A stretch of DNA of 24,000 nt from positions 5,373,661 to 5,397,660 of the forward strand of contig KB904821.1 in the NCBI GenBank assembly GCA_000380225.1, in the 5' to 3' direction. The DNA comes from a filamentous cyanobacterium ESFC-1. Its GTDB lineage: Bacteria > Cyanobacteriota > Cyanobacteriia > Cyanobacteriales > Spirulinaceae. The notes under the pieces are model-generated. The model saw only the letters and a list, made by a program, of their open reading frames with translations, had not been told where the DNA came from and did not search any database. Shown here piece by piece: positions 8,465 to 23,694 of the stretch. The translations under genes were made by a program, and so were the position numbers. Each line of letters opens with the position of its first letter. Within the stretch, counting starts at the first letter, position 1.

Positions 8465-9199
8465 ATGTCATTTCCAAGTTGGTCTGAACGCACCCGTCAA
8501 TTGATTGCATTTTGGAAAGAAAAAGTTAATCCCACCTTAGCTTCACTCTTTTCCACAATCTGGATATTTGGTATTTCAATTGCGGGGCTGGCCTTATGGG
8601 GATTTGCCGAAATTTCCGATGAAGTCTTAGACAAAGAAACCACCGCACTCGATAAAAATATTTTACAAGCACTAAGGGAATTACATAACCCTCTACTCGA
8701 TCGCATTATGATCGGGATTACCTCATTAGGCGATCCTTGGATGGTGACAATTGTGAGTGTTATTGTTGCTATTGTTTTATCGCGACGGCGACGATTAGCT
8801 GGCGCGATTACCATTGGTATTGCCTCAGCAGGTGCTTGGGGATTAAACATTTTATTAAAAGATGTCTTTGCTCGCGATCGCCCGGTCTTGTGGGAACGGA
8901 TTATTGATGCTCAATTTAAAAGTTTCCCAAGCGGTCATGCCATGGTTTCGTTAGTAGTTTATGGCTTTCTGGCTTACTTACTCGCCATTCGCTTTCCACG
9001 ACGACAAAATTTAATTTATTTCCTAGCCATTATCTTAATTACTTTAATTGGCTTTAGTCGGTTATATCTTGGCGTACATTGGCCGACGGATATTGTCGCT
9101 GGCTATGCTGCCGGATTGGTTTGGTTGATGACTTGCATCCTCAGTTTAGAAGTGGTGGAGCGTTCTATTACCAAACGCCGACGATCTGAATCCAATTAA
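8465..9199 (+). CDS. PAP2-superfamily membrane phosphatase
   Basis: 244-aa multi-TM ORF carrying all three PAP2 motifs: KDVFARDRP, PSGH, SRLYLGVHWPTD. Confidence 0.85.
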   Translation: MSFPSWSERTRQLIAFWKEKVNPTLASLFSTIWIFGISIAGLALWGFAEISDEVLDKETTALDKNILQALRELHNPLLDRIMIGITSLGDPWMVTIVSVIVAIVLSRRRRLAGAITIGIASAGAWGLNILLKDVFARDRPVLWERIIDAQFKSFPSGHAMVSLVVYGFLAYLLAIRFPRRQNLIYFLAIILITLIGFSRLYLGVHWPTDIVAGYAAGLVWLMTCILSLEVVERSITKRRRSESN

Positions 9200-10020: not shown

Positions 10021-10060
10021 GCCCTCACCCCCAACCCCTCTCCCAATTGGGGAGAGGGGC
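10021..10060. repeat. GC-rich hairpin repeat, copy C
   Basis: gccctcacccccaacccctctccc-aatt-ggggagaggggc. It has the same leader as 3105 and 3205 and a near-perfect 10-bp palindrome. It sits between the convergent usp gene and the ExbD-like gene. Confidence 0.6.
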
Positions 10061-10105: not shown

Positions 10106-10807
10106 TTATTGTACCCCCACGGCGCGACCTTGGGAGCCAAAAACAATAGTGCGATCGCCCTCCATCGGTTCCCAACCCACATCAAAACCCTGTTCCCACG
10201 CTAATTCCCTCGCTTGACGAAAGCCGGTAAAACTATCAGGACGCACTAAAAAAGCCAAGTAATCGGTTTGCGGGTTGAGACCGTTTAAAACGTCGCGAAA
10301 ATTAGAAGATTCTTGTTGAATAGCTCGCGGATTTTCCCCTTCTATTTCGGGTAATGGGAGATAAGCAATTCCCGAACCGCCAGCAATTCGCGCTTCGTAA
10401 TAACGAGTCGTCGTACTATAATTTTGTAAGCGCTCTAGACGGCGTAATTCGCAGCGTTGATACTCCTCAGCCCGACTGATGTAATAATCATACATTTCGG
10501 GCAAAATATTACTGGGAACTTCAGGTTCTTGGCATTGGGGTAAACCCTGCATATAAAGGTCGAGTTGTCGCGAAACTTGGTCGGTATTGAGGTATTTAAT
10601 TTGGTCGTCTGTGACTTCAAAAAATTTGGGACTTTTGCGGGTATTCGACACCACTGGAGTCCGCACAATGGTTTCAACTTCTGCGGTTACCAAAGCCACA
10701 AATAAGCCAATAAACATCAACACCCCGACGGTATTGGTGAGAATATCTAAAAAGGAATCTAGGTTTTGAGTAGGAGACGACAAACGCCTCATTCTTCTGC
10801 GTCTCAT
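10106..10807 (-). CDS. ExbD/TolR-like single-pass membrane protein (233 aa), TM Asp retained
   Basis: The N-terminus MRRRRMRRL is followed by a TM helix SFLDILTNTVGVLMFIGLFVALV, with Asp21 at the ExbD/TolR/MotB position. The C-terminal block YLAFLVRPDSFTGFRQARELAWEQGFDVGWEP is paralogous to the upstream gene. It begins 3 nt after the upstream gene's stop. Confidence 0.7.
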   Translation of the reverse strand: MRRRRMRRLSSPTQNLDSFLDILTNTVGVLMFIGLFVALVTAEVETIVRTPVVSNTRKSPKFFEVTDDQIKYLNTDQVSRQLDLYMQGLPQCQEPEVPSNILPEMYDYYISRAEEYQRCELRRLERLQNYSTTTRYYEARIAGGSGIAYLPLPEIEGENPRAIQQESSNFRDVLNGLNPQTDYLAFLVRPDSFTGFRQARELAWEQGFDVGWEPMEGDRTIVFGSQGRAVGVQ

Positions 10808-10810
10808 AAG

Positions 10811-11287
10811 CTATTCGGGTGGGGTAGAGTTGGCGGTTTCTACGTTGAGTTTCCAGCCTGTATCCAGGGGTTCGTAACCCAGGTTAATGCCTTCTGCTTC
10901 GATGATACTGCGGAGTTCTGTAAAGACGGAAAAGGCATCGGGACGAACGGCTACAATAAAGTATTCGCGATCGCGATTTTGTTTGACTTGGGTAATAATT
11001 TGACCTAATGCTGAATTAGAATTAGAAAGTTGGTTAAGCGGGACAAATGTTTCTTGGGGATGAATAACGATACCATCCACGCGGGCTTCGAGATAACGCG
11101 GGGTTCTGGTTTGATTGGTTCCCCTTTCGTTTCTGACGACAATTTTAACTTCTCGTTCGCTACCGTAAGTTTGGCTGGTAATGACAATAATGAGTAAAAT
11201 TAAAGTACCAATGGTACAAGCCAAAACGGATAAAAAGGGGAATAATTCGGTTTCGATGGGTTTACGAGTAATTCGACGGCGACGCAT
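10811..11287 (-). CDS. ExbD/TolR-like single-pass membrane protein (158 aa), TM Asp replaced by Ser
   Basis: The N-terminus MRRRRITRK is followed by a TM helix LFPFLSVLACTIGTLILLIIVI. The C-terminal block YFIVAVRPDAFSVFTELRSIIEAEGINLGYEP resembles the ExbD periplasmic domain. It begins 20 nt after the MotA-like gene. Confidence 0.7.
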   Translation of the reverse strand: MRRRRITRKPIETELFPFLSVLACTIGTLILLIIVITSQTYGSEREVKIVVRNERGTNQTRTPRYLEARVDGIVIHPQETFVPLNQLSNSNSALGQIITQVKQNRDREYFIVAVRPDAFSVFTELRSIIEAEGINLGYEPLDTGWKLNVETANSTPPE

Positions 11288-11307
11288 CTTTTTTAATGTT
11301 ATTAATG

Positions 11308-12690
11308 TTAACTTTCGTCCCCTTCAACTAACATAATCCGGCGGGGTTTACCGAGTTGTTGTAATACTGGACGCAGTTGGGCTAAATTACTATCAATTTC
11401 CTTGAGGACGCGCTCTAGTTGGGCAGTTTGTTGTAGTTCTTTGAAGCTTTGTTGTAAGTTGGTTTGGAGTTGAGCAACTTCGATGATTTGATTGGTACAT
11501 TGTTCGAGGGCTTCAACGCGACTTGATAAAGCCAGACTGGTTTGTTCGAGTTGTTTTATAACTTGGGAAGATTGGGTTTCTAATTGCTGCGCGATCGCGC
11601 TACGATCTGTATTAATCGCCGTTAACATATTTTGGATTTCTTGTACCAACATTTGGCTATTTTGCTGTTGGGTTTCCCAAGTCTCTACGAAGCCTTTACG
11701 ATCTTTAAGGGCGACTTGGTTAACTTTACTAACTTTCTGTAAAATCTGGGTACTGGTTTCTTGAATCTGACTAATTTCTGTAACAAAAACTTGGGCAATT
11801 TCTGTGGCGGCTTTTTCGGCATATTCCCGCGCAGGTGCGACTAAATCTTGACTGTCAGGCAGTTTAGTTTCAACTGCTTCGATCACCGCTTTACGAATCA
11901 AGTCTGGGTTAATCGGTTCGGATTTATGGGGCAGTTTGGCGATTAAGTTTTCGTTGATATAGACATCAATGGCTAAGAGCAATCGCGACTCTAAACGCTC
12001 GACTAATACCAAAGGAATCATCACAATAACACTGAGTAACAAAGCCAGTAAAGTGGTATCAAAAGCCACGGCTAATCCGCCTGTAACTGTACCAATTCCT
12101 TCTTTAATTTGGTCGATTTCTCCCGCTTCTTCGAGAAAGCCAGAAAAGCCACTCACCGCTTGACTAATCCCGATTACTGTACCAATAAAACCCAATAAAG
12201 GAATAGCCCAAACCAAAATCCGAGGGACTGAAAAAGACGACTCCGACGCACTCGCATAAAAGGAAGAATCATCTAGAGCAATTTCTGTGGCAGTTTGGCT
12301 ATTTCCCGACTCAATATAAGCCTTGAGAATCCGACTACAGCGCAAGGGTAACAGATAGCTCATTCGTGCTAAGTTGTATTGCAGTTTAGCGACTTGTTGT
12401 GATTTAGCGTCTTCTAAACTGACATTATTGGGAATCCAATTACCCTTTAAGCTGCGGTATTCTTGCTGCAATTTAACAAACTTTAAACCGGTTACCATTG
12501 CCACAGTACAAGCTAAGAAAACCGTAATAAACTGGGTAAAGCCACGACGATAAAACAATTCACCAATCGTTGAATTTTGAACTGGGAATAAAATTACATA
12601 AATAATGACAAAAATTAAAACTGCACCCCCAACTGCCAGGGGTGTAGAAACATCAAGTTCTTGTCGTTCGAGGTTTGCCTTTGCTGCCAT
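11308..12690 (-). CDS. MotA/TolQ/ExbB-family proton-channel protein with long C-terminal coiled-coil tail
   Basis: 460-aa ORF with four hydrophobic helices in a 2+2 pattern. The family signature lies in the last pair: LVWAIPLLGFIGTVIGISQAV ... GGLAVAFDTTLLALLLSVIVMIPLV. Residues ~250-450 are Q/E/L-rich with a heptad-like appearance. Confidence 0.85.
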   Translation of the reverse strand: MAAKANLERQELDVSTPLAVGGAVLIFVIIYVILFPVQNSTIGELFYRRGFTQFITVFLACTVAMVTGLKFVKLQQEYRSLKGNWIPNNVSLEDAKSQQVAKLQYNLARMSYLLPLRCSRILKAYIESGNSQTATEIALDDSSFYASASESSFSVPRILVWAIPLLGFIGTVIGISQAVSGFSGFLEEAGEIDQIKEGIGTVTGGLAVAFDTTLLALLLSVIVMIPLVLVERLESRLLLAIDVYINENLIAKLPHKSEPINPDLIRKAVIEAVETKLPDSQDLVAPAREYAEKAATEIAQVFVTEISQIQETSTQILQKVSKVNQVALKDRKGFVETWETQQQNSQMLVQEIQNMLTAINTDRSAIAQQLETQSSQVIKQLEQTSLALSSRVEALEQCTNQIIEVAQLQTNLQQSFKELQQTAQLERVLKEIDSNLAQLRPVLQQLGKPRRIMLVEGDES

Positions 12691-12853
12691 TTAAAAATTA
12701 CCTGAATCGTTACATTGAGTTAGTGCGATCCTAGCAAAATTTTATAAAATTGAGCAGAATACTCCTTACTGTGTCTTACATCTGAAGGCGCGATCGCAAC
12801 TTTTTCCATCCTAGCTTTACTTTTACCGTTTGTACGGCTGTCAAACAACAATA

Positions 12854-14083
12854 ATGTCTAATCCTTTTTCGTCTCAGACGCATTTGTCTTCCCTACAAGT
12901 TCCCCCGCAGACGCTTCCTTCTCTCCTGCTGGGTTCAACTCATCAACTGCTGCAATTTACTTATAATGCTTCCCCAGGTAATTATGAGTTAGTCAGAGAA
13001 ATTGAATTATGGGATGGTTGCGACTATAGTTACTTAGAACCCCATTGGTTGCAAAAGTTATCTGATTCATTCATTATTGCCCCAGGAGTCAATATTTTCT
13101 CCCTACGAGAAGATATCCCTAGCAGACAATATCACGCCGCATTTCTACCCGATCGCAAATTACTAAAATTATCCCCTGATTTAGAAATTATCGCCGTCCG
13201 CGAACATCAAGAAATTGGCGCAATGATAACTGCAAATAACCGAGTTTGGCTGTGTACGGAAGGGAAATTTATTGTTTTAGATAATAACTTGGATTTAGTT
13301 GCAGAAATCGATCTTAATTTACACGGATTTACCGGCAATATTAAAAATGCTCACGATATTATTATCCACGAAAACACCGCCTATTTACTAGATAATGTGG
13401 TTCAACCAACTTATGTTTTAACCATTGATATTACTAATCCCTATCAACCGCAAATCCTCAATACCCTAGGGTTAATTGGAGTTAACCACCACCTCAAACA
13501 CCAATGGCTGAATCCCGCTTTAAAACAATGGCATATTGTACAAAGTTATGGTACGCAAGTCGAATCGGGAGAGAATATTTTGACGCTACCATTTGAGATA
13601 GAAACGGATAGTATTGACTTGAATCGCGGACAATTTTATGCTGGTTTATCTCCAGATAATCCCCAATCTATTCTACTCGCTCATCAAGCGATCGCGTCTC
13701 AATCTTTTAGAGAGCCTGAAGATTATTCTGGTATTACTATCGTTACAATTACCCCCTTACCGCCTCATTGGGCTGTGATTTACGAAAACAATCAATCTCT
13801 TTATTTCGCAGGGGTAAAAAGTCAAGAAAATATGATGAATATGATTATATTTAAACCTAGACTCAAGTTAGCCACCCTAGGAAACTGTTACCCTCCCAAT
13901 GCTCAAATTTGTCAACACAATAACTTATATTTTTTGATAATAAGAGCATTTTGTGATGATCAAGTTTGGACGCAACTTTTTGTCATTGATGTAACCCGAA
14001 GTCCACAAATTATTTTCAGTCAAGATTTGAGCGAATGGGGGGTAAATAGTTATAAAGTCGCCTTTAGTTTAGCTTCGTCTTAG
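12854..14083 (+). CDS. Hypothetical protein (about 409 aa from the ATG; the ORF track starts at TTG 12830)
   Basis: Long ORF with no TM segment or signal peptide and no confidently recognised domain. One stretch, AHDIIIHENTAYLLDNVVQPTYVLTIDITNPYQPQIL, weakly resembles an LVIVD-type beta-propeller repeat. Its stop lies 2 nt before the methyltransferase start. Confidence 0.65.
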   Translation: MSNPFSSQTHLSSLQVPPQTLPSLLLGSTHQLLQFTYNASPGNYELVREIELWDGCDYSYLEPHWLQKLSDSFIIAPGVNIFSLREDIPSRQYHAAFLPDRKLLKLSPDLEIIAVREHQEIGAMITANNRVWLCTEGKFIVLDNNLDLVAEIDLNLHGFTGNIKNAHDIIIHENTAYLLDNVVQPTYVLTIDITNPYQPQILNTLGLIGVNHHLKHQWLNPALKQWHIVQSYGTQVESGENILTLPFEIETDSIDLNRGQFYAGLSPDNPQSILLAHQAIASQSFREPEDYSGITIVTITPLPPHWAVIYENNQSLYFAGVKSQENMMNMIIFKPRLKLATLGNCYPPNAQICQHNNLYFLIIRAFCDDQVWTQLFVIDVTRSPQIIFSQDLSEWGVNSYKVAFSLASS

Positions 14084-14952: not shown

Positions 14953-15194
14953 AAATTATCAAAAGAGAATAGTTTTTGTGGATCGATGAAGAAATAAAAT
15001 TAAATTTAGTAAAAATGATTCAATCGCAGCAACCTCAGCCCTGACAATTTTAAGGATTGTGATGATTTTGGGGTGAAAGAAGCTCGCCGGGGGCAGGCTT
15101 TCTTACCAAAAATTCTGGGTCTAAAGCCCCGTCCTTAAAGGACGGCTTTTTATTAATTATGTTATGATTAGGGAACTAATTGGCATTTCGTAGA

Positions 15195-16499
15195 ATGCTT
15201 AACCTTTCGTATCAGTATAAACTGAAATTAACGGCAAACCAAGCCGCCGTCATTGATGAGTGGCTTTCAGTTTGTCGTTCGGTTTATAACTATGCACTGA
15301 GAGAAAGGAAGGATTGGGTAAACTCCCGCAAGTGTTTAGTAGACCGATGCTCAATTCGGTCGGAGTACATCATTGCTCCTGACGCAAAGCGCCCAACTTA
15401 TGCCAGTCAGTGTAAATCTCTGACTGCGGCTAAACGAACCCACCCAAGCCTAAAACTCCCTCAATCTCAAGTTCTGCAACAAACTCTAAAACAGTTAGAA
15501 GCAGCCTTCGTGAATATGTGGGATAGAGGGTTTGGGTTTCCGCGTTTCAAAAAGCATAAGCGGTCATTTGTGTTTCCACAAGTTAAACCGGATGCGGTTA
15601 ATGGAAATACGATTGACCTCCCCAAAATTGGCAAGGTAGAGTTTCACAACTCCAGAAATATTCCCGATGGCTTTTTTGTCAAGCAAATACGAGTTATCAA
15701 GAAAGCCAGTGGGTACTATGTCTCGGTTTCAATCCAATGCGACGTAGACGTTCCCGACGTTATGCCTCACGGCTATGCCATTGGGGTTGACTTAGGATTA
15801 AACAGCTTTATCGCCACCAGCGAGAACCAATTTGTCAAAGGACACAAGTTTTTCAAGGAATCTGAAGGCCAGCTTAAATCGCTGCAACGGAGACTGAAAA
15901 ATAAAACCAAAGGTTCAAGACGTTGGTTAAGAGTAAAGCACCAAATTGGGCTACTGCACGAAAAGATACACAACTGTCGCAAGGATTTCTTCTTCAAACT
16001 GGCTCATCAACTCTGTGATGAAGTGGGGATGATATTCGCAGAAGATTTAAATCTCAAGGCGTTAGGACGTTCAGCTTTAAGGAAAGCTTGCCTTGATGCG
16101 GCTTGGGGTTCATTTCTGAATATCCTCAGCCATGTTTGTTGGAAGCGTGGCGTGTATTTTGCCAAGATAGACGCGAATGGGACAAGTCAGATTTGTCCCC
16201 ATTGCGGAACCAACTGCGGCAAAAAGTCTCTGTCTCAACGAGTCCACTCATGCTCTAATTGCGGCTACACGACAGACAGGGATGTGGCGGCGGCTCAAGT
16301 GGTGAAAGAACGAGGATTAAGTGCGGTCGGGCAGGTCGTACCAATGCTCGTCGAGGGTAAAGACGAGGGGCTGTGTCCGCCACCTGCGGGCGGACTTTAT
16401 ATGCCCCGTATCGGGGCTGGGGTCTATACTCCAGCGCTTAGTCTCCCTATGACGCGAGAATCCCCGCTTATGACAGGACGGGGAGTTGTCAAAATGTGA
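15195..16499 (+). CDS. tnpB: TnpB RNA-guided endonuclease (IS605 OrfB family)
   Basis: The N-terminus MLNLSYQYKLKLTANQ is typical of the family. The RuvC triad contexts are intact (GVDLGLNSF, IFAEDLNLK, TTDRDVAAAQ). The zinc finger is CPHCGTNCG...CSNCGY. The ORF track extends to TTG 15180; I prefer ATG 15195. Confidence 0.9.
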   Translation: MLNLSYQYKLKLTANQAAVIDEWLSVCRSVYNYALRERKDWVNSRKCLVDRCSIRSEYIIAPDAKRPTYASQCKSLTAAKRTHPSLKLPQSQVLQQTLKQLEAAFVNMWDRGFGFPRFKKHKRSFVFPQVKPDAVNGNTIDLPKIGKVEFHNSRNIPDGFFVKQIRVIKKASGYYVSVSIQCDVDVPDVMPHGYAIGVDLGLNSFIATSENQFVKGHKFFKESEGQLKSLQRRLKNKTKGSRRWLRVKHQIGLLHEKIHNCRKDFFFKLAHQLCDEVGMIFAEDLNLKALGRSALRKACLDAAWGSFLNILSHVCWKRGVYFAKIDANGTSQICPHCGTNCGKKSLSQRVHSCSNCGYTTDRDVAAAQVVKERGLSAVGQVVPMLVEGKDEGLCPPPAGGLYMPRIGAGVYTPALSLPMTRESPLMTGRGVVKM

Positions 16500-16562: not shown

Positions 16563-19097
16563 ATGACTGTAGAAACACGAATAATCTGGTTGCAAGAGCG
16601 AACCCCGTTGACTGTGCTACCTGACAAGGCACTCAACGCGATCGCACCGCTTTTGCAGAAACGAGACATTACAGCGCATTGTACCGTGATGCGCGAACAG
16701 CAAACCCCGGACGGTTTATATATTCTCGTCGCTGGTCGCGCTGAAAGCAATCGACCCTTAGATAATTCTCAAATTTTACAAGCGGTGAGTTTGTTACCGG
16801 GGTCGGTGATTAACCTGCAAGCATTACTCCTCGACCAACCCACCCAACAAACCCTGACCACCAAAATTGATTGTCAGTTTTGGTTTCTCCCCAAAGCCGA
16901 CTTTCAAGCCTGGGTGAGTGAATATCCCAGCATTACCCAAATTATCGCCCAACAACTGGCCCGAGAAGTCAGCCAACTGGCCACCCAACTTAGCTTTGAA
17001 CAAGAACGTCAGGCGATGTTGCGGCCTTATTTAGTGACGAAAGCCCGACGGGGCATTATTGGCAAAAGTCGCTATGCCGTCCGTTTACGCAAACAAATCA
17101 AACAAGCTTCTGATAGTCGGAAATCGGTGCTGATTTTCGGGGAACCGGGTTTAGAAAAAGACAATATTGCCGCGCTAGTTCATTATGGCTCCTCTTGCCG
17201 CCGCGAAACGATTATTCGCGTTAATTGTAATACCCTGCAAGCAAGCGGGGCAGATTTGTTTGGTCGGGTAGGGGGTAAACCGGGCTTAATTTCAGCGTTG
17301 GGTCGCGGCACCTTGGTTTTAAATAATATTCAAGAGTTAGCCCCCAAATTAATTCAACCCATTGCCCATTTACTCGAAACCGGGCGATATTTCCCCATCA
17401 GTCGTGGCGAAACGCGATCGCAAGCGGCTTTAATTTCAGAAGCTCGTATTATTATGATTTCTGAAAAATCCAATCCCGACCTCGATCGCTTGGTAGGTCA
17501 TAAAATCAAAGTACCACCGTTGCGGGTACGAAAAGCGGATTTAGCCGATTGGGTGAATTATTACATTAGTATTACTTGCCGCGCCAGGGGGATTCCGCAA
17601 CCGAAACTCACCCCAGAAGCCCTGCGACAGTTACAGGCTTATGACTTTCCCAACAATTTGCGGGAGTTAGACAACACGGTGGGGCGAGCGATTACGCAAC
17701 TCTCCGGGACAGAGGAACTCACAGAAGAAATTATTTGGCCGGCTCAGAGCAAAAAACAACAATTTCGCTTTAATTTGCTCGATTCTTACCCAAAATTGCG
17801 TTATTTCCTCCGCAGTCCTTGGTGGCCCGACCGCATTAACTATGGTTTTACCACCGTGGCATTTGCCTTGGTGGTGGCGATTTTATTTCTGGGGCCGCAA
17901 ACCCGCGATCGCAACTTTGCCTTAAACTTATTCTGGGCGTGGTGGTGGCCCCTCATTCTCCTGGGTTTCCCCTTTGTAGGGCGATTGTGGTGTGCCGTTT
18001 GTCCGTTTATGATTTACGGTGAAATTACCCAAAAAATACGCCAACATTTCCTGCCGCAACCCCTCAAAAGCTGGCCCCGTCACGTTGCTGAACAATGGGG
18101 TGGCTGGTTTCTCTTTGGCTTGTTTGCCCTAATTCTGTTGTGGGAAGAAGTCTGGGATTTAGAAAACACCGCCTATTTATCCGCTTGTTTGTTGCTGCTG
18201 ATTACGGCGGGTGCGATGATTTTTAGTGCCATTTTTGAGCGTCGTTTCTGGTGTCGTTACCTCTGTCCCATTGGGGGGATGAATGGGATGTTTGCCAAGC
18301 TTTCGATGACCGAGTTACGAGCGGAACAAGGGACTTGTTCGGCAGAATGCACCACTTATCAATGTTACAAAGGCGGCCCGGAAAAAGGCGAAGGTCAAGC
18401 CACCGATGGTTGTCCGTTGTACTCTCATCCCGCGCAAATGCAGGATAATCGCGATTGTGTGTTGTGCATGACTTGTCTGAAAGCCTGTCCCCATCGGTCG
18501 GTAGAATTTAATGTGCGTATCCCCGGCATTGAATTATGGACGACTCATATTCCCCGGAGTTACGAGGTGGCTTTGTTGCTACTGTTACTCGATGCGGTGT
18601 TTCTGCACAAACTCCCCCAGATTAACCAGGCTTTGGGGTTGAATTGGGATTTGAGTCAGTTTGGCCCCCATTTGGGCTTGTCGGTGTTGGTGTTGGGTCT
18701 TCCGGCGGCGATTCCCTTCCTTATGTATGGCATTGTTCAACTGATTTACAAGGTTTTGCGGCAAATCAAGCCGCCGCCTTTCATGGAGTTGGCTTATGGT
18801 TATCTTCCCTTTGTTTTAGCCGCTAATTTGACTTATTATCTCCCTTTGGGTTTAGGAGAAGCCGGACGCATTCTGCCGGTGAGTTTTGCCACGTTTGGCT
18901 TACAGGGTGAGGGTTTGCCGATTTTAGTAGCGCATCCGGCAACCATCAACTTTTTACAGGGAAGTAGTTTGTTCTTGGGCATGGTTTTGGCCTTTGTCCT
19001 CACCCAGAATATTGCCCGTCAACCGTGGCGATCGCTCCTACCGCAGCATTTGGGTATTGTGGTTTTAGGGGTGCTGTTTTGGCAGCTTATGGTTTAG
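16563..19097 (+). CDS. Fusion protein: cNMP-binding-like domain + degenerate sigma-54-type AAA+ domain + NapH/polyferredoxin-like membrane 4Fe-4S domain
   Basis: 844-aa ORF. Residues ~20-135 look like a CAP effector domain. Residues ~165-395 align with the sigma-54 interaction domain (IIGKS..VLIFGEPGLEKDNIA..VNCNTL..DLFG..GTLVLNNIQEL..VPPLRVRKADL..FPNNLREL). The C-terminal half has multiple TM helices with CAVCPF, CRYLCPIGG and CVLCMTCLKACPHRS. Confidence 0.85.
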   Translation: MTVETRIIWLQERTPLTVLPDKALNAIAPLLQKRDITAHCTVMREQQTPDGLYILVAGRAESNRPLDNSQILQAVSLLPGSVINLQALLLDQPTQQTLTTKIDCQFWFLPKADFQAWVSEYPSITQIIAQQLAREVSQLATQLSFEQERQAMLRPYLVTKARRGIIGKSRYAVRLRKQIKQASDSRKSVLIFGEPGLEKDNIAALVHYGSSCRRETIIRVNCNTLQASGADLFGRVGGKPGLISALGRGTLVLNNIQELAPKLIQPIAHLLETGRYFPISRGETRSQAALISEARIIMISEKSNPDLDRLVGHKIKVPPLRVRKADLADWVNYYISITCRARGIPQPKLTPEALRQLQAYDFPNNLRELDNTVGRAITQLSGTEELTEEIIWPAQSKKQQFRFNLLDSYPKLRYFLRSPWWPDRINYGFTTVAFALVVAILFLGPQTRDRNFALNLFWAWWWPLILLGFPFVGRLWCAVCPFMIYGEITQKIRQHFLPQPLKSWPRHVAEQWGGWFLFGLFALILLWEEVWDLENTAYLSACLLLLITAGAMIFSAIFERRFWCRYLCPIGGMNGMFAKLSMTELRAEQGTCSAECTTYQCYKGGPEKGEGQATDGCPLYSHPAQMQDNRDCVLCMTCLKACPHRSVEFNVRIPGIELWTTHIPRSYEVALLLLLLDAVFLHKLPQINQALGLNWDLSQFGPHLGLSVLVLGLPAAIPFLMYGIVQLIYKVLRQIKPPPFMELAYGYLPFVLAANLTYYLPLGLGEAGRILPVSFATFGLQGEGLPILVAHPATINFLQGSSLFLGMVLAFVLTQNIARQPWRSLLPQHLGIVVLGVLFWQLMV

Positions 19098-20864: not shown

Positions 20865-22133
20865 ATGGAAGATGGTTGTCTTCTTTTGTCTATCCACGCC
20901 ACCCCGTTAAGAGTAATGTCTAATCCTGCGAGTCCGTCTCATCCCTTGCTTGTTGTGCCGACGGGGGCTTTGCAAATCCCGCCGTTAGCAGCCCGCAATT
21001 CAGCAACGACTACGCCAGAAATTAAGCTTTCTTTAATTATTCCAACTTATAAAGAAAGCCAAAATATTCCCACGATTGTTAGTAAGTTAAGTCATTTACT
21101 AAACCAAACGATTCGCGATCGCTACGAGTTAATTATTGTAGATGATAATAGCCCCGATCTGACTTGGGAAGTGGCGCAATCTCTCATGCCCGAATATCCC
21201 CAATTGCGGGTAATGCGTCGGGAAAAAGAAAGGGGTTTATCAACAGCCGTAATTCGTGGTTGGCAAGCCGCGAGAGGGGAGGTTTTGGGGGTGATTGATG
21301 CGGATTTACAACACCCTCCAGAAACCCTATTACAATTATACGCGGAAATGGAACGGGGGGCAGATTTAGCCGTCGCGAGTCGCCATGTAGAAGAAGGTGG
21401 AGTCAGCGATTGGAGCATTATCCGGCGCTTTTTATCCAGGGGGGCGCAGGTGTTGGGTTTAATCATTTTACCGGGGGTTGTGGGGCGCGTTTCTGACCCG
21501 ATGAGTGGCTATTTTATGGTGCGTCGAGATGCCATTATGGGAAAGGTGATGGACCCGGTGGGTTATAAGATTTTAATTGAAGTTTTAGGACGGGGAAATA
21601 TTCGCTGGATTGGGGAAGCGGGTTATGTTTTTCAAGAGCGTCAAGAAGGGGAAAGTAAGGTAACAGGAAAGCAATATATAGAGTATATTCAGCATTTACT
21701 AAAGCTCAGAATATCTCGCTGGCCGTTGATGCGGTTTATTCGTTTCGGCGTGGTGGGCTTTAGCGGTGTTTTTGTGGATATGGGCATATTTTATGTATTA
21801 CGAGAAATTGCCGGATTAGCCTTGACCCGCAGTGCCATTTTATCGGCGGAAGTGGCAATTGTTAATAACTTCTTATGGAATGATTTATGGACGTTTGGGG
21901 ATATTTCTCGGACGCAAAAGGGCTGGAAAAAGCGGATTAAACGGTTTTTAAAGTTTAATTTAGTTTGTTTGGCGGGGTTAATTATTAATGTTTTGATTGT
22001 TAATATATTATTTAATTTATTGGGGATGAATGAATATGTAGCCAAGTTAATCGCGATCGCGGCGGTGACACTTTGGAATTTTTGGATTAACCTGAAGTTA
22101 AATTGGCGTGTAACCGAAGTGGATGAGCGATAA
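20865..22133 (+). CDS. Polyprenyl-phosphate glycosyltransferase (GT2, DPM1/GtrB-like) fused to a GtrA-like membrane domain
   Basis: The GT2 half has LSLIIPTYKESQNI, IIVDDNSPD and VIDADLQHPPE. The C-terminal ~130 aa has four TM helices with GtrA-family features (FIRFGVVGFSGVFVDMGIFYVL ... VNNFLWNDLWTF ... WNFWINLKLNW). The start may instead be Met18 at 20916. Confidence 0.85.
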   Translation: MEDGCLLLSIHATPLRVMSNPASPSHPLLVVPTGALQIPPLAARNSATTTPEIKLSLIIPTYKESQNIPTIVSKLSHLLNQTIRDRYELIIVDDNSPDLTWEVAQSLMPEYPQLRVMRREKERGLSTAVIRGWQAARGEVLGVIDADLQHPPETLLQLYAEMERGADLAVASRHVEEGGVSDWSIIRRFLSRGAQVLGLIILPGVVGRVSDPMSGYFMVRRDAIMGKVMDPVGYKILIEVLGRGNIRWIGEAGYVFQERQEGESKVTGKQYIEYIQHLLKLRISRWPLMRFIRFGVVGFSGVFVDMGIFYVLREIAGLALTRSAILSAEVAIVNNFLWNDLWTFGDISRTQKGWKKRIKRFLKFNLVCLAGLIINVLIVNILFNLLGMNEYVAKLIAIAAVTLWNFWINLKLNWRVTEVDER

Positions 22134-23694
22134 AAGACGGTATCAGCCTGCGATTATTTTATCTTTGCTGTTTGCCATTGTTTTAGGCGTATTGCTGCGG
22201 TTTACCACCTTATCAGGGTTGGTATATTGGTATGATGAAGTTTACACGACATTGCGATCGCAAGGGCTGACAGAAACGGAGTTTGTGCGGGATATCGGGC
22301 AAAACCCGACGGTAACAGTCCAGCAGCTTCAGCAATATCAGCATTTTGACCGCAATCGCAATGGTTGGGATGTGATCCATTCTTTGGCCACAGAAGACCC
22401 GCAACACCCGCCGTTATATTATCTTTTGACTCATTTTTGGTTGCGGTGGTTTGGCTCAGAAATTGCTGTATCTCGCAGTTTGGCGGCGATTTTCTCGGTT
22501 TTGGCAATTCCAGCGATGTATTGGGTGGCGTTTGAGTTGTTTACTTCCTCATGGGTGGGATTGTGGGCTGCGGCGATTTTGGCGATTTCTCCGTTTCACA
22601 TCCTTTATGCCCAGGAAGCCCGTCAGTATAGTTTATGGACGGTGACAATTTTACTCTCAAGTGGGGCGTTATTGCGAGCGTTACGTCAACCGAAGCTTAA
22701 AAATTGGGGTTTATACGCAGTTACCGTGGCTTTGGGGCTTTATACTTTTTTGTTTTCGGGGTTGGTTTGCGTCAGTCACGGGTTGTATGTGTTGGTCACG
22801 CAAAAACGGAAGACGTGGGGGGCTTATCTGGCTGCTTCTACTCTGGGAGTGTTACTGTTTTCTCCGTGGTTGTGGGTGATTGCGACCAGTTTAGCCCAAG
22901 TCAATCAAGGGACAGCTTCTCAAGCGAGTGCAAAGTTAGGCTTGGGGGTATTGTCGCAAAAATGGGCAATTAATGTAACGCGGCTTTTTGTGGATATCCA
23001 GTTGGGTTATGGCCCGGATATTATCTTAAATCGCAAGGAAATTTTAACTTATGCGATCGCGCCTTTGTTAATTTTAGTCGGGTTGGCGTTTTATTTTTTG
23101 ATTCGCCATACTTCGCGCTCAGTTTGGCTTTTTGTGGTGTTTTTGGTGTTAGTTACGAGTTTGAAGCTGATTTTACCCGATTTAATCCTTGGGGGTCGTC
23201 GCTCGACGGTTAGCCGCTATCTTACGCCTTGTTACTTAGGGATTGAGTTAGCGGTGGCGTTTCTATTCAGTCGCCAACAAAGGGGAATTTGGGCGATCGC
23301 GATCGCGTTAGTCTTAGGAGGAGGGATGATGTCTAATCTGGTTAATCTCAATGCAGACACGTTATGGCATAAAGAAAGCGGTTACTACAATCCTAAAGTC
23401 GCAACTGTGATTAACCAAGCCCAAAATCCTTATATCATCAGCGACACAGAAATGGGCAATATTCTCTCGCTGAGTTATCTTCTCAAGCCAGGGGTGGAAT
23501 TCTATTATCAGCCCCATCGCTGTCATACTTGTCCGATGAATTTGACCCTAACCCCAGATTTTCCCGTAACTTTCCCCCCCGGACAATCTGTATTTGTCTT
23601 TCGGCCTTCTAGACAACTGCGAGAAACATTAGAAACCCAAGGTTACAGTCTCAATCGTGCATCCACTCCTGCTTTATATCGCTTATTGCCTTAA
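22123..23694 (+). CDS. GT-C fold membrane glycosyltransferase (GT39/PMT_2/ArnT-like)
   Basis: 523-aa polytopic ORF with YWYDEVYT (the acidic DE motif after TM1), HPPLYY and SPFHILYAQEARQY. Its start overlaps the upstream stop by 11 nt, which suggests translational coupling. Confidence 0.8.
   Translation: MSDKRRYQPAIILSLLFAIVLGVLLRFTTLSGLVYWYDEVYTTLRSQGLTETEFVRDIGQNPTVTVQQLQQYQHFDRNRNGWDVIHSLATEDPQHPPLYYLLTHFWLRWFGSEIAVSRSLAAIFSVLAIPAMYWVAFELFTSSWVGLWAAAILAISPFHILYAQEARQYSLWTVTILLSSGALLRALRQPKLKNWGLYAVTVALGLYTFLFSGLVCVSHGLYVLVTQKRKTWGAYLAASTLGVLLFSPWLWVIATSLAQVNQGTASQASAKLGLGVLSQKWAINVTRLFVDIQLGYGPDIILNRKEILTYAIAPLLILVGLAFYFLIRHTSRSVWLFVVFLVLVTSLKLILPDLILGGRRSTVSRYLTPCYLGIELAVAFLFSRQQRGIWAIAIALVLGGGMMSNLVNLNADTLWHKESGYYNPKVATVINQAQNPYIISDTEMGNILSLSYLLKPGVEFYYQPHRCHTCPMNLTLTPDFPVTFPPGQSVFVFRPSRQLRETLETQGYSLNRASTPALYRLLP

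Follow-up and report, generated by a model that had tools for sequence, protein, structure and literature searches.

Can a single proton-binding site drive a rotary membrane motor, or would such a motor step differently? In the current view of the characterised 5:2 motors, two identical Asp residues take turns as each motor rotates. The question is raised by three genes, here termed A, B1, and B2, at positions 10106–12690 of a 24,000-nucleotide (nt) stretch of the genome of the filamentous cyanobacterium ESFC-1 (contig KB904821.1, positions 5,373,661–5,397,660), hereafter called the window. They encode a channel subunit with a long cytoplasmic tail and two paralogous ExbD/TolR-like proteins, one of which has Asp and the other Ser at the critical transmembrane (TM) position. 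With the scales tipped modestly in its favour, the trio is read here as a divergent 5:2 motor driven by the proton motive force, with a B1:B2 axle and a Ton/Tol-like energising role.

All three genes lie on the minus strand as open reading frames (ORFs): A (11308–12690, 460 amino acids, aa) for the MotA/TolQ/ExbB-family channel subunit, B1 (10811–11287, 158 aa) for a protein of predicted ExbD/TolR fold, and B2 (10106–10807, 233 aa) for its paralog. A direct read of the sequence gave TAA, 20 nt, and ATG at the A–B1 junction and TAG, 3 nt, and ATG at the B1–B2 junction, in agreement with the packing and the gaps of 20 and 3 nt described in an earlier note on this DNA. Since each has hundreds of conserved homologs (818 matches for A, 501 for B1, and 383 for B2), A, B1, and B2 are real genes. 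They form one operon, which is self-contained because no neighbour family recurs around the loci surveyed.

The A protein is a member of the MotA/TolQ/ExbB family. It matched Pfam MotA_ExbB (PF01618) with 30.0 bits (cut-off 22.9) over residues 131–227, which cover its last TM pair. The hydropathy profile contains four hydrophobic segments in a 2+2 layout, and the AlphaFold2 model (predicted local distance difference test score, pLDDT, 72) has helices at residues 16–37, 51–81, 154–187, and 192–252, with a cytoplasmic loop at about 82–153; the layout and the place of the family signature are thus those that the earlier note had assigned. A Foldseek search with the model retrieved TolQ (8odt, 9kpz), ExbB (5sv0), ZorA (8qyd), and PomA (8brd), all at probability 1.0. 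The target-normalised template-modelling scores (TMt) were 0.53–0.61 for TolQ (8odt/9kpz), 0.51 for ExbB (5sv0), and 0.43–0.51 for ZorA (8qyd/8qyy), and MotA gave the poorest matches (0.32–0.37). In superposition, the modelled core of A fits TolQ/ExbB better than it fits ZorA or MotA. A profile search of the PDB with family A returned coiled-coil false positives only (syntaxin, apolipoprotein).

The channel-lining segment of A (12052–12180, minus strand) extends from Thr171 (codon 12178–12180) to Thr213 (codon 12052–12054). When the family A profile was aligned with Escherichia coli TolQ and ExbB by hhalign, GFIGTVIGIS of A fell on GLFGTVWGIM and Thr213 on the threonine of the TolQ motif IAT. 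Thr171 and Thr213 occupy the positions of T145/T178 in TolQ and T148/T181 in ExbB, the lumen threonines opposite the Asp of the B subunit. Thr171, Thr212, and Thr213 are invariant in 97 sequences, as is the run F210-D211-T212-T213.

The C-terminal tail of A (residues 232–460; 11311–11997, minus strand) is cytoplasmic and helical. Its 229 residues contain 13.5% Q, 12.2% L, and 10% E; there is no Pro and only one Gly between residues 287 and 440, where the hydrophobic periodicity is 3.5–3.6, and AlphaFold2 places helices at 262–276, 280–319, and 324–443, with a Pro-containing linker at 254–286. The composition, the periodicity, and the predicted helices bear out the Q/E/L-rich helical tail recognised in the earlier note, whose quoted peptide starts at residue 368. 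Near its C-terminus the protein has a conserved KPRRIxLVE motif, in which P449, R450, and I452 are invariant, and the PRR motif is also found near the C-terminus of planctomycete-type relatives (L062, L086). Some cyanobacterial A proteins are longer, with 627–635 aa (L011, 5654–7537; L045, 7965–9872) against the usual 460–485 aa.

Both B1 and B2 start with MRRRR, and their paralogy was evident by BLASTP (E=1e-10) and by family-to-family hhalign (98.7%, full length). B1 has a cytoplasmic N-terminus and one TM helix with Ser20 (codon 11228–11230), and B2 has Asp21 in its TM helix (codon 10745–10747), so that the paralogy and the two residues were read correctly in the earlier note. The motif LFPFLSVL of B1 aligned with VTPFIDVM of ExbD and IVPLLDVL of TolR (hhalign, broad B profile against the E. 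coli proteins, probability 64–67%), which therefore puts Ser20 at the position of ExbD Asp25 and TolR Asp23. At the site of this TM Asp, then, B2 has Asp21 and B1 has Ser20. B2 also carries a periplasmic insert of about 72 residues with the invariant Cys92 and Cys119, which probably form a periplasmic disulfide.

In the AlphaFold2 model of B1, the periplasmic domain has a pLDDT of about 90. Its top fold match in Foldseek was TolR (5by4, probability 0.96), and ExbD was matched with TMt 0.71 (8vgd_B) and 0.70 (8p9r_A) at a root-mean-square deviation of 2.7–3.0 (3.0 for 8vgd_B). On this model, the periplasmic domain of B1 is of the TolR/ExbD fold, the outcome on which the earlier note had made its proposal depend, and the homology of B2 to B1 in hhalign suggests the same fold for the periplasmic part of B2. 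A broader B-family profile reached ExbD (E=0.14) and TolR (E=0.67) of the PDB weakly. Among the Pfam families, ExbD (PF02472) was the one matched by most members of the wider family (4 of 60, best E=0.002). B1 and B2 themselves matched no Pfam, NCBIfam, or PADLOC family and have no OmpA domain in Pfam, and phmmer searches with their TM regions alone gave no link to ExbD. The Pfam comparison suggested in the earlier note was therefore passed by A with MotA_ExbB and failed by the two small proteins with ExbD. By structure, B1 and B2 belong to the ExbD/TolR superfamily as remote members that escape its Pfam model. The family is large: the B1 profile gathered about 2,960 clusters at 50% identity, and ten diverse members that were scanned had no Pfam match.

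The Asp/Ser pairing is not a peculiarity of this genome. Ser20 of B1 and Asp21 of B2 are each invariant (121 of 121) within almost invariant TM helices, in which Cys24 and Thr25 of B1 and Asp17, Thr24, Asn25, and Thr26 of B2 are likewise fixed, and the pairing is kept in distant trios. Homologs of the three proteins span the cyanobacterial orders, with representatives in Jaaginema, Lusitaniella, Oscillatoria, Lyngbya, Spirulina, Myxosarcina, Hyella, Crocosphaera, Gloeothece, Microcystis, Anabaena, and Dolichospermum. The closest relatives are a metagenome contig (L013, 100% identical), a Spirulinaceae metagenome-assembled genome (92%), and Jaaginema (82%). A metagenome scan gave 80 trio loci, and the A-B1-B2 order was complete in 38 of the 49 loci with enough downstream sequence. 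B1 and B2 are separated by a median of 3 nt and frequently overlap by 4 nt, a spacing that implies that the two proteins are made in a coupled, equimolar way; the spacing between A and B1 is looser. The A-protein tree largely follows taxonomy, and the window copy groups with chromosomal copies. A phage origin of the trio was rejected, no relatives being found in the collections of phage records and viral contigs searched.

A distant clade (L058–L092; 26–40% identity, 49–68% G+C) has the same three-gene layout and keeps the split, the TM motif being LFPFLSIL for the B1-type protein and LDSLLDTL for the B2-type protein. Its neighbours include DUF1559 and sulfatase genes, which we take to be hallmarks of Planctomycetota, and the clade is probably planctomycete. 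The distant B proteins have long coiled-coil inserts and Pro-rich C-termini, and A of L062 (2936–6513) and L086 (7611–11170) starts with a zinc-ribbon-like CxxC...CPYC motif; the B2-type protein of these two loci ends in a Pro-rich, TonB-like stretch. A compact trio of 441, 150, and 227 aa (L057, 1045–3472) has Asp in both B proteins (LFSFLDIL, GILDVLANL) and may represent the state before the Asp-to-Ser change. Departures from the usual arrangement were also observed among cyanobacteria. Three low-G+C loci (L029, L030, L051; 36–37% G+C) have two tandem B1-type genes, followed by B2 in the two whose contigs reach far enough (L029 and L051) and accompanied by short B1-like fragments in L029 and L030. 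Geminocystis sp. NIES-3709 (L012, 8001–8702) has a lone B2 gene beside panC/cmk, and in L014 (5598–9380), where the trio is not intact, B1 lies upstream of A on the opposite strand.

The favoured reading, a proton-driven 5:2 motor with a B1:B2 axle, builds on the family to which A belongs, the fold modelled for B1, the common ancestry of the two B proteins, the invariance of Asp and Ser, the autonomy of the operon, and its wide conservation. In such a motor, five copies of A would form a membrane ring with a lumen lined by Thr171 and Thr213, and one B1 and one B2 would each place their single TM helix inside this ring, a putative 5:1:1 stoichiometry. As B1 always has Ser at the Asp position, the axle has one proton-carrying site rather than two; Asp21 of B2 would be its sole protonatable residue and would face the threonine ring of A. 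The passage of protons through the Asp21/threonine site would move the A ring relative to the B1:B2 pair, presumably by rotation. The periplasmic ExbD/TolR-fold domains of B1 and B2 may then hand the work to a partner encoded elsewhere, such as a TonB-like or TolA-like protein or peptidoglycan, in this presumed direction of energy flow. The tail of about 190 residues would project into the cytoplasm as an added module with a cytoplasmic function. The earlier note had spoken of a tailed stator with an Asp/Ser pair; the tailed ExbB/TolQ-type channel and the two ExbD-like paralogs stand, and the term stator is unsupported.

The trio resembles ExbB-ExbD and TolQ-TolR in the PF01618 domain, the TolQ/ExbB-like fold, and the channel threonine pair of A, in the cytoplasmic N-terminus, single TM helix, and periplasmic ExbD/TolR-fold domain of the B proteins, in a PF(L/I)D-like TM motif, and in the position of the B genes directly downstream of A. 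It differs in several respects. A has an extra N-terminal TM helix (four instead of three) and a C-terminal extension of about 230 residues relative to ExbB/TolQ; the B subunit comes as a pair of obligate paralogs, of which one has Ser for the essential Asp; B2 has a 72-residue Cys-containing insert that ExbD lacks; the window B proteins are not recognised by the Pfam ExbD model; and the operon is not linked to a gene for TonB, TolA, Pal, or a receptor. What sets the trio apart is its fixed Asp/Ser axle together with the tail of A.

A TolQ/ExbB-like gene followed by two TolR/ExbD-like paralogs is also the layout of AglRQS of Myxococcus and of exbB-exbD1-exbD2 loci. In those systems, as far as is known, both B paralogs keep Asp and the A subunit has no tail. 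The architecture is the only feature in common with AglRQS: no glt or gliding genes occur near the trio, cyanobacterial motility is driven by type IV pili, and the gliding role considered in the earlier note found no support. A flagellar stator of the MotAB/PomAB type is also not what the operon encodes, with no OmpA domain in B1 or B2 and no flagellar genes nearby. A precedent outside the classical systems is offered by gene clusters of the Planctomycetota-Verrucomicrobiota-Chlamydiota (PVC) group, in which a tolQ-like gene with heterologous tolR-like pairs was noted (PMC12204202). Their hosts include planctomycetes, and they too combine one TolQ-like gene with two different TolR-like partners, but they also contain genes for TPR and vWA transducers, and the Asp is retained in them. 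Among the trio neighbours, vWA was not one of the commonest families, and each TPR family matched one neighbour only. The trio family was not described in two 2025 surveys of 5:2 motors and force transducers.

A lead to physiology comes from Synechocystis sp. PCC 6803, in which sll0477-0479 form one transcription unit, annotated as ExbB-like and two hypothetical proteins, that is induced 6.7-fold in iron starvation (PMC4195498). The genes have been named exbB/exbD3/exbD4 and assigned a Fur box in strain 6803, and the same paper refers to Jiang et al. 2015 for ExbB-ExbD in the uptake of inorganic iron (PMC8634477). The likeness is that of a cyanobacterial three-gene operon with the annotation pattern that the trio family receives. 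In contrast to sll0477-0479, the window has no iron-related gene and no recognisable Fur box, as judged without a usable published motif text. A Ton/Tol-type envelope energiser, which is the most likely physiological role of the trio, would be in keeping with the way sll0477-0479, an operon of similar organisation, responds to iron starvation. In Anabaena, an insertion mutant of exbB2 (alr4587) does not grow diazotrophically (PMC8262864). The alr4587 gene was considered as the Nostocales A gene and set aside: the published primers failed as DNA (5–7 mismatches in 17–18 nt, wrong spacing) and as peptides against Nostocales A, and the link is not claimed.

The surroundings of the trio were surveyed through 120 neighbours at about 40 cyanobacterial loci and 83 neighbours at 36 loci of the distant clade. 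Histidine kinases (6) and ABC ATPases (5) were the most frequent families among the 120 cyanobacterial neighbours, TonB, receptor, OmpA, and Pal were not among the commonest, and all-against-all clustering of the neighbours (39 loci) gave no recurrent one. The routine adjacency to tonB or receptor genes, named in the earlier note as the pattern of an ordinary exbB-exbD1-exbD2 operon, was thus not observed. One distant trio (L090, 81–5634) lies directly downstream of a TonB-dependent receptor (Plug and beta-barrel domains), the only such adjacency in the distant-clade survey, and was counted for a Ton-type role; A of this locus has only 345 aa, with a short or absent tail. The window, too, was correctly described as free of TonB and the other partners sought, which says little, because the exbBD region of E. 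coli K-12 has no annotated tonB either and a missing tonB is weak evidence.

Two groups of loci have a different setting. In Nostocales, the genes for Cmr2, Cmr3, Cmr4, a small protein, Cmr6, one or two Csm6-like proteins, A, B1, and B2 follow one another on one strand. This linkage of type III-B CRISPR genes and the trio was found in at least three separate assemblies, namely plasmid pANACY.03 of Anabaena cylindrica PCC 7122 (L007/L094, 1005–12544), a FACHB-strain contig ending in a relaxase gene, and a Logan assembly, with L102 (1–11182) and L103 among the linkage loci. Dolichospermum-type contigs share the order and are too short to reach Cmr2-4, and L097-L099 also belong to the linkage loci. 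The Csm6-like proteins between the Cmr cassette and the trio have 496 aa (E=4e-11) and 510 aa (a weak match) and are unannotated. On pANACY.03, a viperin-family gene follows 5 kb downstream of the trio, and a DUF559 gene is also downstream. The linkage is not mentioned in a paper on type III accessory genes. The second setting is plasmid p1 of Microcystis aeruginosa NIES-2481 (L093, 1–12911), where the trio stands in a defence-island-like run, mostly on one strand, preceded by an N6 DNA methylase, a nucleotidyltransferase with SLATT, and a DrmD/PLD-like helicase and followed by DUF559, NUDIX, HNH, GIY-YIG, and integrase genes. The Nostocales copies and the Microcystis plasmid copy group together in the A-protein tree.

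Several observations weigh against a Ton/Tol-like motor. To our knowledge, both B subunits of known motors carry Asp as a rule, and a one-Asp axle may therefore not rotate in the standard way. Canonical ExbB and TolQ, unlike A, have no long tail. The link of B1 and B2 to ExbD is made of fold, faint profile matches, and the TM motif; in Pfam neither protein matched ExbD at E<=1, and PDB profile searches with them returned only MarR-family and coiled-coil noise. Genes for TonB, receptors, TolA, or Pal do not recur around the cyanobacterial or distant loci surveyed, and the Nostocales and Microcystis contexts point to defence. Orthology of the window trio to sll0477-0479 is plausible, though unproven; if it holds, the trio may act as a redundant ExbB-ExbD set, the behaviour that the earlier note had named as contrary to its proposal of an atypical operon.

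A rival reading is a Zorya-like sentinel, in which the periplasmic domains would sense perturbation of the envelope or peptidoglycan, for example by phage or plasmid entry, and the A tail would relay a signal into the cell, to effectors encoded nearby or elsewhere, in a defence or stress role instead of the energising of uptake. This is unlikely, yet it deserves to be taken seriously. A carries a long helical cytoplasmic tail, in which it resembles ZorA in kind though not in length, and it gave weak ZorA profile matches that include tail regions (PADLOC ZorA3 24 bits; NCBIfam ZorA_2 16.8 bits over residues 163–431), ZorA structures (8qyd, 8qyy) were among its Foldseek matches, and some family members lie in defence islands or beside type III-B genes: the Nostocales trio stands directly after the Cmr cassette and two Csm6-like genes, with the viperin-family gene on pANACY.03, and the p1 copy has its defence-gene setting. 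However, the ZorA_2 score is far under its cut-off of 100 bits, PADLOC ZorA profiles gave at most 24 bits, and ZorB gave no match. The tail of A, at about 190–230 aa, is less than half as long as that of ZorA (roughly 500 aa). B1 and B2 carry an ExbD-like domain instead of the OmpA/peptidoglycan-binding domain of ZorB; no effector is conserved, and ZorC, ZorD, and ZorE are absent from the window and from chromosomal trio loci. Lacking a ZorB-type domain and effectors, and with ZorA scores below threshold, the trio is not a Zorya system, and the ZorA-type resemblance of the tail invoked in the earlier note proved weak (17–24 bits), the core being closer to TolQ/ExbB. The possible defence role raised there finds support in Nostocales and on the Microcystis plasmid but not in this window. 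PADLOC returned only generic kinase and ATPase matches for the 120 chromosomal-trio neighbours, without defence enrichment, the A tree largely follows taxonomy, and phage records and viral contigs yielded no relatives. HIP1 (GCGATCGC) occurs once in each trio gene, as previously claimed (10151 in B2, 10967 in B1, and 11591 in A); the window has 36 sites against 0.34 expected by chance, the mark of a cyanobacterial genome, and the density in the operon is about that of its surroundings, which argues against a recently acquired island here. The defence contexts may represent only two independent mobile elements. A broader version of the idea, that the trio belongs to an unrecognised class of tailed 5:2 motors with an obligate one-Asp heterodimer axle, acting as envelope sentinels and wired in Nostocales to type III-B CRISPR-Cas with Csm6-like partners, is rather doubtful.

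Two further explanations start from the envelope and from the missing Asp. Cyanobacteria are not known to have a Tol-Pal system, and the trio might substitute for it as a maintenance motor that engages peptidoglycan or outer-membrane tethers through its ExbD/TolR-like domains in growth and division. TolQ ranks first for A with the highest TMt (8odt, 9kpz, up to 0.61), and TolR is the top fold match of B1. Immediately upstream of the trio, Spirulina subsalsa has MltA and a PG_binding_1 protein, and Lusitaniella has NlpC/P60, a Mur ligase, and a penicillin-binding-type protein. Both PCC 7424 and the window have lipid-carrier enzymes (PAP2, PMT_2) in the vicinity of the trio. None of these neighbours, the peptidoglycan enzymes included, recurs across the roughly 40 loci, however, and the A tail has no counterpart in TolQ. 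The trio is not Tol-Pal itself: E. coli has the layout tolQRAB, whereas tolA, tolB, and pal are absent from the window and from the commonest trio neighbours, and no gene resembling TolA, TolB, or Pal was found. Such a maintenance motor is improbable. The Asp-less B1 could alternatively be an inhibitory or plug subunit, and the complex, which would not rotate, could either leak protons in a gated manner or serve as a static scaffold in the membrane. Asp at the TM position is needed in MotB, ExbD, and TolR, and representatives of the wider B1-like family have S, D, A, G, N, or T at the position of Ser20, as if proton carriage were dispensable. Against this, the TM helices of B1 and B2 and the channel residues of A are extremely conserved, which argues for a precise, selected mechanism and against decay, and the Asp/Ser pairing is kept across phyla, so that a non-rotary complex seems a distant prospect.

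Upstream of A, an alignment of five loci whose A proteins share 58–92% identity (the window, L001, L002, L006, and L014) revealed a promoter-like block at 12721–12755 on the minus strand (GCTCAATTTT..TTTGCTAGGATCGCAC), putatively functional in transcription of the operon. It contains TGnTAGGAT about 40 nt 5' of the A start codon, with a -10-like TAGGAT at 12733–12728 preceded by TG at 12736–12735, and TAGGAT and its flanks are invariant in the five loci. An AT-rich palindrome in the block (AATTTTATAAAATT, 12751–12738) was considered as a Fur box and dropped, as it is not conserved in Jaaginema. At the other end, a perfect 10-bp, G+C-rich inverted repeat at 10035–10059 (CCCCTCTCCC-AATTG-GGGAGAGGGG, strand unassigned) lies 47 nt 3' of the B2 stop codon, before the next gene; no clear T-run accompanies it on the minus (operon) strand, and it is possibly a transcript end or stabiliser.

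The neighbours of the operon in the window are of housekeeping type, with AdhE, aconitase, rhodanese, PAP2, Usp, a methyltransferase, and glyoxalase II, besides TnpB, a cNMP/AAA/4Fe-4S protein, a GT2-GtrA protein, PMT_2, and a 417-aa protein; none of the remaining ORFs of the window gave a match to a TonB, TolA, Pal, OmpA, TonB-dependent receptor, nuclease, or helicase domain. The 417-aa ORF (12830–14083) diverges from the operon promoter region; its product has no Pfam or NCBIfam match, and it was not seen beside the trio in other lineages. A TnpB/IS605 OrfB-type gene (15180–16499) with helix-turn-helix, OrfB_IS605, and Cas12f-like TNB domains lies 2.5 kb from the operon, followed at 16563–19097 by the gene of an 844-aa protein with an unusual combination of a cyclic-nucleotide-binding domain, a sigma-54-type AAA+ domain with lid, and a 4Fe-4S domain (Fer4_5). 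PAP2, PMT_2, and GT2-GtrA families occur within 10 kb of the window trio (8465–9199, 20865–23694), and in Gloeothece citriformis PCC 7424 (L011, 8925–11529) a PAP2 phosphatase and a PMT_2 (ArnT-like) glycosyltransferase adjoin the trio. The association with lipid-carrier and envelope glycosylation enzymes is loose and unproven.

The B family is large yet unmatched in Pfam, and many ExbB-like genes are therefore annotated without partners. Should sll0477-0479 be its counterpart, the trio is also relevant to the way in which iron uptake is energised in cyanobacteria. If the Nostocales linkage to type III-B genes is functional, the trio would be a new kind of membrane accessory module, and a sentinel wired to that system, if real, would link a membrane ion motor to CRISPR immunity. 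For the motors as a family, one Asp and one Ser kept across at least two phyla put the model of two-Asp alternation to the test.

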